Shown piece after piece: positions 60,215 to 60,522 of a stretch of DNA of 64,000 nt. The stretch lies in the sequence record OZ346182.1; one strand, 5' to 3'. Within the stretch, counting starts at the first letter, position 1. Each line of letters begins with the position of its first letter. The position numbers and the translations under genes were made by a program. The notes under the pieces are model-generated. The model saw only the letters and a program-made list of their open reading frames with translations, was not told the DNA's origin and searched no databases. The DNA is from a phage.

Positions 60215-60296
60215 CGGGGCGTATCTCAGCGGTCTTCTAAACCGCCGTTAACCGAGTAAGTGGAGTATGCGGGTTCGAGTCCTGCCGCCTCGACCA
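60215..60296 (+). tRNA. atypical tRNA-like gene (clear T-arm and acceptor, perfect stem-loop with UCU triplet, no canonical D-arm)
   Basis: Acceptor CGGGGCG/CGCCTCG, T-arm GCGGG-TTCGAGT-CCTGC, stem GCGGT-CTTCTAA-ACCGC, 23 nt extra region; may be Arg-like or a pseudo-tRNA. Confidence 0.4.
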
Positions 60297-60439
60297 ATTT
60301 AGTTAGCAGATTACTTAGACGACCTAAGCGGGTCTTCCTGTAGGGAGGTGGTCTGTATCTCATGTTTTCCAGAACATGTAAATAATCTGAGAAGGGGCTT
60401 TACAGTGTTGAGATAATACGGTAAGCTTCGAATTATAGT

Positions 60440-60522
60440 ATGGGACGATGTTAAGACTCTAAGGCATGAGCAACGGCCTCCAAAACCGTTTCAAAGGGGT
60501 TCAACTCCTCCGTCCCATGCCA
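60440..60522 (+). tRNA. atypical 83 nt tRNA, anticodon CCA (Trp-like)
   Basis: Acceptor ATGGGAC/GTCCCAT, loop CTCCAAA, T-loop TTCAACT; D region longer than usual. Confidence 0.45.

Follow-up and report, generated by a model that had tools for sequence, protein, structure and literature searches.

What are two tRNA-like genes that escape standard tRNA detection doing in the tRNA cluster of a phage? This question is raised by a 64,000-nt stretch of phage DNA (sequence record OZ346182.1; the whole stretch is referred to as the window), in which two such genes, el1 (60215-60296) and el2 (60440-60522), are located on the + strand. An original prediction made from the sequence alone described both as atypical and offered pseudo-tRNAs, tRNA mimics, and unusual functional tRNAs as options. 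Based on a computational analysis, we suggest that el1 and el2 are probably functional, structurally non-canonical tRNAs that complete the decoding set of the phage, and our confidence in a decoding function is higher for el1 than for el2. From sequence, we infer that both are expressed, charged, L-shaped, and used by the ribosome.

Two genes in the largest gap of a Felixounavirus tRNA cluster

For the window region, we found 270 GenBank phage records with 80-99% identity, mostly from Escherichia, Salmonella, and Shigella phages. All matching records inspected are Ounavirinae of the genus Felixounavirus (Felix O1-like, ~86 kb), and the window represents a Felixounavirus tRNA cluster. Using ARAGORN, we identified 25 tRNA genes on the + strand at 58632-63556, with which a search using the Rfam tRNA model agrees. 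The largest gap in this array, between tRNA-Ile (59891-59966) and tRNA-Ser (60536-60625), contains el1 and el2, neither of which is among the 25 ARAGORN calls. With the Rfam tRNA model (RF00005), el1 had a marginal score of 31.7 bits (gathering score, 29) in an alignment with a deleted D-arm (4 nt vs 15 in the model) and a 20-nt insertion. el2 had no Rfam tRNA match, and its best score was 23 bits to tRNA-Sec (RF01852; gathering score, 47). No family in Rfam 15 covers el1 or el2, and neither tool resolved them as standard tRNAs by a different parse. We rejected tRNA-Sec membership of el2 based on the score (23 bits vs 47), the anticodon, which is CCA and not UCA, and the variable loop of just 5 nt. 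Similarly, tmRNA (transfer-messenger RNA)-like or tRNA-Sec-like membership of the elements was rejected based on weak Rfam matches (10-23 bits). The stretch 59250-60900 contains no plausible open reading frame (ORF), and the ORFs located there are ≤65 aa and overlap tRNAs.

The 25 canonical tRNAs detected by ARAGORN cover all amino acids except Trp, and the only canonical tRNA for Arg among them has the anticodon ACG. In the long ORFs of the window, AGA makes up 27% of the Arg codons. In the Felix O1 genome paper, AGA was reported to be over-represented, and a matching tRNA was not detected there (PMC3185647).

Fold, identity, and distribution of the el1 class

el1, probably a non-canonical tRNA-Arg(UCU) gene, comprises 79 nt plus an encoded CCA and scored 98.4 bits with R1, the covariance model of its family. 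The acceptor strands CGGGGCG (60215-60221) and CGCCTCG (60286-60292) form a 7-bp stem that includes G3.U70; the 3′ strand is followed by the discriminator A (60293) and CCA (60294-60296), completing the segment 60286-60296. The T-arm (60269-60285; GCGGG/TTCGAGT/CCTGC) has a 5-bp stem and a 7-nt loop of the TTCRANY type, and the anticodon arm (60229-60245; GCGGT/CTTCTAA/ACCGC) is a perfect 5-bp stem-loop with U33 and the anticodon TCT at 60236-60238. The acceptor, CCA, T-arm, and anticodon arm of el1 are thus canonical, and the sequence confirms what the original prediction had said about these parts. The D-arm is not: position 9 and the anticodon stem are not separated by a D hairpin, and the sole supported helix in this region encloses the anticodon arm. 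The gene had been described as having only 7 nt in place of the D-arm and a 23-nt extra region. Both are present (TATCTCA and, between the anticodon and T arms, CGTTAACCGAGTAAGTGGAGTAT), but this description overlooked that three linker nucleotides pair with the extra region, the rest of which appears to be a displaced D-loop. Specifically, the linker UAU (60222-60224), which is invariant in the family (columns 8-10 in both subclass alignments), is followed by CTC (60225-60227), which pairs with GAG (60254-60256) in a 3-bp helix, from here on the D-like helix. The anticodon stem and GAG are separated by an 8-nt bulge on the 3′ side (CGTTAACC, 60246-60253), and GAG is followed by a D-loop-like connector (TAAGTGGAGTAT, 60257-60268) with GG at 60262-60263 and A at 60264. 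GGA is invariant in an alignment of 43 family members (below), and, by analogy, these three nucleotides may be the equivalents of G18, G19, and A20. The segment lengths sum to the size of a normal tRNA.

The evidence for this fold comes from covariation. A narrow pattern scan of IMG/VR gave 58 loci, from which we obtained 43 unique full-length el1-family sequences. In their alignment, 98.7% of pair cells are paired vs 68.7% in shuffles, the covariation score is 0.781 vs 0.19 in shuffles, and changes on both sides are seen for 16 of the 20 pairs. For the acceptor stem, 99.3% of cells are paired, and all seven pairs changed on both sides; all five pairs of the anticodon stem covary, and the T-arm is likewise supported by family covariation. 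The D-like helix is paired in 100% of the alignment, in combinations such as CTC/GAG, CGC/GCG, CGT/ACG, CAC/GTG, and CAG/CTG. A compensatory change is also found inside Felixounavirus el1, in which the anticodon stem is GCGGT/ACCGC in the window vs GCTGT/ACAGC in sister phages.

With the model R1, scores were 74-102 bits for family members and no higher than 32 bits for canonical tRNAs. From intermediate R1 matches, we built a looser pattern, and all counts for the class given from here on, including the second subclass, refer to the matches listed in the scan with that pattern. Among these, 136 sequences are unique, of which 122 are tRNA-like as judged by their acceptor, anticodon, and T stems; in 113 of the 122, all 3 bp of the D-like helix are intact, and ten sequence variants of this helix occur among them. 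An eleventh variant, ACC/GGT, is present in Streptomyces phage NootNoot. Most class members are 77 nt long with the 5-nt bulge NGAAA, while the bulge of el1 is CGTTAAnn. In a gap-free alignment of 35 sequences of this second subclass, 94.3% of cells are paired, the covariation score is 0.855 vs 0.203, and the D-like helix is 100% paired (UA15/CG14/GC6). The pair types of this helix include UA/GC/AU and CG/GC/UA across the 43- and 35-sequence alignments, and in both subclass alignments, the covariation signal was lost once the register of the helix was slid. ARAGORN detected none of the 113 class members, and six of eight other class members tested missed the Rfam tRNA threshold. Because el1 and el2 (see below) are conserved and covary in relatives, they are more than chance tRNA look-alikes.

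Other explanations of the el1 core were tried and rejected. A class II-type hairpin in the 23-nt region (columns 38-40/47-49), where folding of the single sequence puts a small hairpin, is 83.7% paired with zero changes on both sides, and RNAalifold predicts none. In a 7-position pairing of TATCTCA with TGGAGTA, U10-U43 is paired in no sequence. A fourth pair of the D-like helix (columns 14-39) is paired in 7 of the 43 sequences, the remainder being nonstandard and, by eye, mostly A.C. An intron or a permuted gene was dismissed because both ends of el1 pair normally, and a D-armless tRNA of the mitochondrial type because el1 has 79 nt and keeps the covarying D-like helix and the GG segment.

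The nucleotide after the invariant GG is coupled to the anticodon. Among the 113 members, 64 have Arg-type anticodons (TCT 57, ACG 4, CCT 2, and CCG 1) and 49 have others (TAT 43, CAT 3, GAT 2, and TAC 1); the Arg-type anticodon TCG is also present in the narrow IMG/VR set. After GG, all 64 Arg members have A and all 49 others have T, and this coupling is seen in both bulge subclasses. The discriminator is A throughout the 43 TAT members. Bacterial arginyl-tRNA synthetase (ArgRS) recognizes C35, U36/G36, A20, and a purine at position 73, with A20 and C35 as the main determinants. The TCT anticodon of el1 supplies C35 and U36. Given these recognition rules, UAAYUGG-N behaves like a D-loop that has been displaced (A14 R15 Y16 Y17 G18 G19 N20).

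Using BLAST, we found el1 copies with 82-90% identity in unrelated phages, almost all of them unannotated. They are present in the Demerecviridae (Klebsiella phage Sugarland and Serratia phage Kamaji), the jumbo Asteriusvirus phages BF17 and SD-1_S14, the 337-kb Salmonella phage PHA46 (unclassified below Caudoviricetes), Justusliebigvirus PD06 (Stephanstirmvirinae), the Vequintavirinae (Mydovirus KPP-1 and phage A5-4), and Streptomyces phage BoomerJR. The family also occurs in crAss-like phages and many uncultured viruses, and unannotated Ile-type members are present in 77 cultured Streptomyces phages as well as in crAss-like phages. By contrast with this spread among phages, the family is nearly absent from cellular genomes: el1 had zero matches in 5,426 complete E. 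coli genomes, and the narrow core pattern matched just 3 metagenome-assembled genome contigs among 185,579 species genomes.

Single loci add further observations. NootNoot (L297, ~395-472) and the crAss-like phage cr130_1 (L298, ~393-470) have members with GAT and TAT anticodons, respectively, and the NootNoot member sits among protein genes, outside any tRNA array. A TAT member in locus L198 (1732-1808) occupies a tRNA-sized gap between canonical tRNAs at 1651-1724 and 1813-1887 in a dense array and was missed by the Rfam tRNA model at the gathering threshold. A few el1 homologues have GenBank labels, e.g., tRNA-TERM in Salmonella phage 7t3 (MK773491.1, 338191-338287) and tRNA-OTHER in phage REP9 (OQ174508.1, 56750-56831); annotation pipelines see something at these loci but cannot classify it.

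The slot occupied by el1 can instead hold a canonical gene. In Salmonella phage pSJ21 (L001, 1215-1291), a canonical 77-nt tRNA-Arg(TCT) of unrelated sequence is located in the el1 slot between near-identical flanks. Among 23 informative related loci, 12 have el1, 11 have the canonical tRNA-Arg(TCT), and none has both; the exchanged segment is essentially the gene alone. Among GenBank phage records with these flanks, 115 have the el1 allele and 127 the canonical tRNA-Arg(UCU) allele. The former include phage wV8 (NC_012749; el1 within the matching segment 27547-27667), and the canonical allele is present in the sister phage VpaE1 (KM657822). Both alleles have the identical anticodon loop CTTCTAA. 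For the class as a whole, 70 of the 113 members have a canonical tRNA within 300 nt. In arrays with ≥5 canonical tRNAs, the anticodon of 37 of 41 members is absent from the canonical set, as exemplified by an ACG member beside canonical TCT, TCG, and CCT and by a TAT member beside canonical GAT.

el2, a tRNA-Trp-like gene

el2 was described as an 83-nt gene with a CCA anticodon loop and an enlarged D region, all of which we found at 60440-60522, where 80 nt are followed by an encoded CCA. The D hairpin is preceded by an invariant 9-nt connector (ATGTTAAGA, 60448-60456) rather than the canonical 2 nt. The 3-bp D stem (60457-60459/60468-60470) is CTC/GAG in the window and CAC/GTG in relatives; the 5-bp anticodon stem (60472-60476/60486-60490) changes from AACGG/CCGTT to GTAAG/CTTAC. 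The anticodon CCA (60480-60482) lies in the context CTCCAAA, in a loop of 9 nt or, if closed by a C.A mismatch, of 7 nt. Across nine sequences, 96.7% of the cells of the el2 fold are paired, and nine pairs changed on both sides. In these sequences, pairing is 95.8% for the 8-bp acceptor (pairs 1-8 with 72-79) and 97.2% for the 4-bp T stem GGGG/CCTC, which is accompanied by an A.C mismatch and includes one pair that changed on both sides. el2 therefore has the (8/4) architecture, in which the acceptor and T stems contribute 8 and 4 bp to a 12-bp branch.

The identity of bacterial tRNA-Trp for TrpRS depends on the CCA anticodon, G73, and A1-U72. In el2, the discriminator is G (60519) and the first pair is A1-U, with G1.U or G1-C as variants in relatives; together with the loop CUCCAAA, A1-U72 and G73 match bacterial tRNA-Trp. 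Two forms of the anticodon loop occur in close relatives (60477-60485 in the window; 1471-1479 in L001), cCUCCAAAa and cUUCCAACa, in which positions 32 and 38 co-change.

Copies of el2 are present in 236 records, which by name are Ounavirinae save a few named for other hosts. The gene is conserved in Felixounavirus, Mooglevirus, SUSP2, and Arno18, with diverged copies in Moogle, Sf13, Sf17, and Arno18. For Mooglevirus Sf14, 26 tRNAs for 19 amino acids have been reported, and Trp is missing from the table (PMC12482277). The wV8-like genomes (L009 and L014) have, in place of el2, a 71-nt tRNA-Trp(CCA) that ARAGORN detects; its D-arm is reduced, and its anticodon is at position 30 (L014, 7866-7936). 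In L009 (3383-3872), this gene is followed by a gene for a 134-aa HNH endonuclease (PHROG 2255). An environmental viral contig (L104, ~517-600) has a distant el2-like scaffold with the shared connector GATGTTAAGA, an 8-bp acceptor, and a TTT (Lys) anticodon. A broad el2 family was rejected; the IMG/VR pattern scans returned Ounavirinae copies and L104 only, other matches being chance hits in coding DNA. Similarly, a common origin of el1 and el2 via a GTTAA-N5-TAA motif was rejected because this motif occurs 4 times in the window vs 5.2 expected and is no rarer than by chance.

Proposed decoding role, competing explanations, and neighboring elements

We propose that el1 is a tRNA-Arg(UCU) with a rewired core that would decode AGA (and AGG). 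In a cloverleaf, the D 5′ strand, D-loop, and D 3′ strand precede the anticodon arm, variable loop, and T-arm. The order in el1 would instead be acceptor, UAU, 3-nt strand, anticodon arm, 5- to 8-nt bulge, complementary strand, D-loop-like segment, and T-arm, i.e., the D-loop block and the anticodon-arm block would be exchanged in a non-circular permutation. Because the 3-nt strand continues into the 5′ strand of the anticodon stem with one nucleotide between them, the D-like helix should stack on the anticodon stem, giving one hairpin with a 3′ bulge. This coaxial stack would correspond to that of a normal tRNA with a different chain connectivity. The chain would enter and leave the anticodon hairpin at its top; the 3 nt UAU would reach the acceptor stem, and the GG segment could reach the T-loop before the T stem, with the displaced GG docking on the T-loop. 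In this way, el1 would keep an L-shape accepted by RNase P, EF-Tu, and the ribosome, and host ArgRS would read C35, U36, and the post-GG A as the A20 equivalent. el2 would be a tRNA-Trp(CCA) with canonical element order, an 8-bp acceptor, a 4-bp T stem, a 9-nt connector, and a 3-bp D stem. More tentatively, and somewhat short of an even chance in our estimate, el1 may represent a large, phage-specific, and undescribed class of tRNAs comprising at least Arg and Ile types, decoders of the rare AGA and AUA codons, in which a permuted core is served by the ordinary bacterial machinery. A further possibility is that selection favored the rewired core as an escape from host enzymes or defence nucleases recognizing a canonical D-arm.

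Several observations weigh against these proposals. The single-sequence folding energy of el1 equals that of shuffles (z = 0.04). In the RNAalifold prediction for the el1 family, the acceptor, anticodon, and T stems are recovered and the 3-bp D-like helix is missing, so the support for this helix comes from covariation counts alone. The assignment of the post-GG A as A20 is an analogy drawn from sequence and not from structure. Because the collecting patterns fix several motifs, GTTAA, GTAA, TGG, and GGTTC are invariant in part by construction; in addition, the shuffle statistics overstate significance because related sequences are not independent. The anticodon of the member is duplicated in 4 of the 41 arrays. 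The support for el2 consists of nine sequences from one virus subfamily and one distant relative. Finally, the acceptor of el1 in the window has G2-C71, G3.U70, G4-C69, and A73. G3.U70 is the dominant determinant for AlaRS, and G2-C71, G4-C69, and A73 complete the classical set; because el1 carries this set, its charging specificity is uncertain.

The last point would allow el1 to be charged with alanine and to act as an AGA-to-Ala missense tRNA. In several enterobacterial-phage members, G.U is retained at 3-70 despite differences in pairs 1-72 and 2-71. However, G3.U70 is present in just 8 of the 43 unique members, based on which we rejected alanine identity as a conserved function of the family; in the remaining 35, 3-70 is G-C, C-G, U-A, A-U, or U-G. 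Moreover, with 27% of the Arg codons of the phage being AGA, misreading would harm its own proteins, and the post-GG A tracks the Arg anticodons perfectly. We regard alanine charging as very unlikely. Even less probable is that el1 and el2 are pseudo-tRNAs, i.e., decaying, non-functional remnants in a recombination-prone cluster. ARAGORN missed both genes, their Rfam scores are marginal or below threshold, fragments of true tRNAs are located nearby (59496-59530 and 60081-60126), and some tRNAs have been labelled "pseudo" in published papers on Felix O1-like genomes. Decay does not account for compensatory changes in every helix with 94-99% of cells paired, for 82-90% identity across unrelated phage families, for the restriction to few anticodon identities that are coupled to a distant nucleotide, or for the way in which the genes complement canonical tRNA sets. 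Thus, among the options of the original prediction, a functional role is favored for both genes, while covariation largely refutes the pseudogene option, against which conservation, identity coupling, and complementarity also speak.

Mimicry outside decoding, in which the RNAs would act as decoys or sponges for tRNA-targeting nucleases or modifying enzymes or as regulatory RNAs imitating tRNA-Arg and tRNA-Trp, is unlikely in our assessment but would account for a non-canonical core combined with an anticodon loop identical to that of the host-type tRNA, and for the restriction of the el1 class to phages. Host defence systems that cleave tRNAs, tRNA-Arg among them, are known (PMC12916289; see also PMC10264068 and PMC11464382). 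A mimic would not be expected to preserve the acceptor/T branch (12 bp in total), the discriminator, and often an encoded CCA, to obey synthetase rules at identity nucleotides beyond the anticodon, to supply the anticodon missing from the canonical set, or, as el1 does, to substitute one for one for a canonical tRNA-Arg(UCU) gene. A fourth explanation, which we consider doubtful although it could add to a decoding role, is immunity to homing: a neighboring HNH endonuclease would cut the canonical tRNA gene of competitors, and repair would copy the divergent allele. HNH genes downstream of el1-type genes, of the PHA46 copy, and of the alternative tRNA-Trp in L009, the precise gene-for-gene swap with conserved flanks, and a travelling AATTA motif fit this explanation. 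On the other hand, no endonuclease gene adjoins el1 or el2 in the window, and most members are without one. Moreover, divergence alone would suffice for immunity, leaving the conserved architecture and the coupled nucleotides in distant phages unexplained. We therefore continue to favor functional, non-canonical tRNAs.

Homing is relevant to how the genes move. The el1 and el2 slots in Felixounaviruses are cassettes exchanged between genomes, and free-standing HNH homing endonuclease genes probably help this exchange. HNH genes (Pfam HNH_3 or PHROG 2255) begin 5-75 nt 3′ of el1-type genes in Sugarland, Kamaji, L046, L062, L085, and L017; in PHA46, an annotated HNH endonuclease gene is located 16 nt after the el1 copy. 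An ORF of ≥90 aa is nearby for 25 of 73 el1-family occurrences. The ORF check of 59250-60900 in the window revealed no endonuclease gene beside el1 or el2. The AATTA motif accompanies el1 in three phage groups. Homing-driven cassette exchange, which these observations fit, would explain the spread of el1-type genes between phage families; the conserved architecture of the class is left unexplained by it.

The remainder of the gap and its surroundings contain additional elements. As previously pointed out, GCAGTAGCTT recurs at 59591 and 60081; it is present exactly twice in the 64-kb window and extends to a 20-nt repeat with 80% identity. These two elements had been considered tRNA-like, and neither is a tRNA. 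The first is a 130-nt structured, non-tRNA-like spacer (59590-59719, + strand; fold z-score, -4.08) closed by 21-nt complementary arms (59581-59601/59706-59726). It has no Rfam match and was found by BLAST in just 3 of 25 related loci, because of which it looks like another variable cassette. The second (60081-60214, + strand; fold z-score, -3.77; conserved in 23 loci) has an acceptor-like 5′ end and a degenerate T-arm (60102-60126) but no anticodon arm and no 3′ acceptor strand; it is a tRNA relic followed by hairpins. Among these hairpins, a perfect 15-bp hairpin (60174-60208) is located just upstream of el1. The segment 59496-59557 contains a T-arm and 3′ acceptor-like fragment (84% identical to the T region of tRNA-Ile) and then a sequence resembling a tRNA 5′ half (GGTCGAGTTGGTGTAATGGTAGCAC), and looks like tRNA fragments left by rearrangement. 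The spacer 60297-60439 is nearly invariant across Felixounaviruses and Moogleviruses, the latter with a 23-nt hairpin insertion; it was rejected as a structured RNA since it folds well (z = -2.46) but has zero compensatory changes. Inverted repeats of 14 nt (60522-60535/60624-60637) flank tRNA-Ser, and a 26-nt inverted repeat (60791-60880) lies upstream of tRNA-Leu; these repeats and the 60174-60208 hairpin may be processing signals or cassette boundaries. Upstream of the el1/el2/tRNA-Ser unit, a candidate sigma-70-like promoter, TTGACA-17-TATAGT (59982-60010, + strand), matches 11 of 12 consensus positions, the consensus match being its only basis. Elsewhere in the window, two group I introns scored above the Rfam threshold, at 8552-8834 (- strand) and 25663-26044 (+ strand); the published Felix O1 paper reported no introns (PMC3185647).

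Comparison with known systems indicates what is unusual about the two genes. el1 shares with canonical tRNA-Arg(UCU) (E. coli argU, T4 tRNA-Arg, and the pSJ21 allele) the loop CUUCUAA, a 7-bp acceptor, a 5-bp T stem, TTCRANY, a purine discriminator, and GGA, as well as the genomic slot and presumably the decoding job; it differs in having no D hairpin at positions 9-26, a three-way rather than a four-way junction, and an otherwise unrelated sequence. Metazoan mitochondrial D-armless tRNA-Ser(GCU/UCU) also lack the usual D hairpin, have a short connector to the anticodon arm, and, like el1, are probably missed by standard models; in these shorter tRNAs, the D-arm is lost, and mitochondrial factors have adapted (PMC7609411). 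el1, by contrast, is full sized (79 nt), its D-like helix and GG segment are relocated, and it would require ordinary bacterial factors. Circularly permuted tRNA genes in Cyanidioschyzon merolae and other algae and split archaeal tRNAs resemble el1 in that the segment order departs from the cloverleaf. In the permuted genes, however, the 3′ half is encoded ahead of the 5′ half, and a standard mature tRNA results from processing (PMC10085705), whereas the rearrangement in el1 would persist in the mature RNA because its two ends are unaltered and form an acceptor stem followed by CCA. Another parallel is provided by the natural non-circular permutations of ribozymes (Eckert et al. 2023, PMC10085705), in which internal blocks are reordered while helices and, presumably, their three-dimensional positions are kept; those RNAs are self-cleaving ribozymes, with ribozymes being the only RNAs for which such permutations have been reported to date, and el1 is tRNA-like. 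The introduction of that paper states that there were no earlier non-circular permutations in natural RNAs and mentions tRNAs solely for circularly permuted genes. el2 resembles the (8/4) and (9/3) allo-tRNAs and the phage (8/4) tRNA-Ser and tRNA-His (Mukai et al. 2017, PMC5389517) in its 8-bp acceptor and 4-bp T stem and is located in a phage tRNA cluster. The described (8/4) tRNAs are of the Ser, His, Cys, or Sec types, many with long variable arms and Sec-like D-arms (PMC5389517), unlike el2 with its Trp anticodon and identity, short variable loop, 9-nt connector, and 3-bp D stem. In phages, (8/4) tRNAs are known for Ser and His; a Trp version with the connector of el2 is not known. Phages are unmentioned in reviews of non-canonical tRNAs (PMC7609411), and recent papers call all known bacterial tRNAs cloverleaves. 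The el1 class is apparently undescribed so far; full-text literature searches revealed no prior description, with subscription journals mostly outside their coverage and priority possible elsewhere.

If the proposed fold and function are correct, el1 would provide the first example of a tRNA with a non-circular permutation, and the bacterial translation apparatus would naturally accept a tRNA with a permuted core. Phage tRNA inventories would be systematically incomplete: Felix O1-like and Moogle-like phages would encode 20 specificities and not 19, and decoders of AGA and AUA would be under-counted in Streptomyces, crAss-like, and marine phages. Analyses of codon usage and anti-defence functions of phage tRNAs would then need to be redone with a model of the class, and the el1 scaffold would be a ready candidate for orthogonal tRNA engineering. 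The dimorphism of the slot in Felixounaviruses (~115 vs 127 sequenced genomes) provides natural, isogenic-like pairs in which the benefit of the odd fold could be probed.

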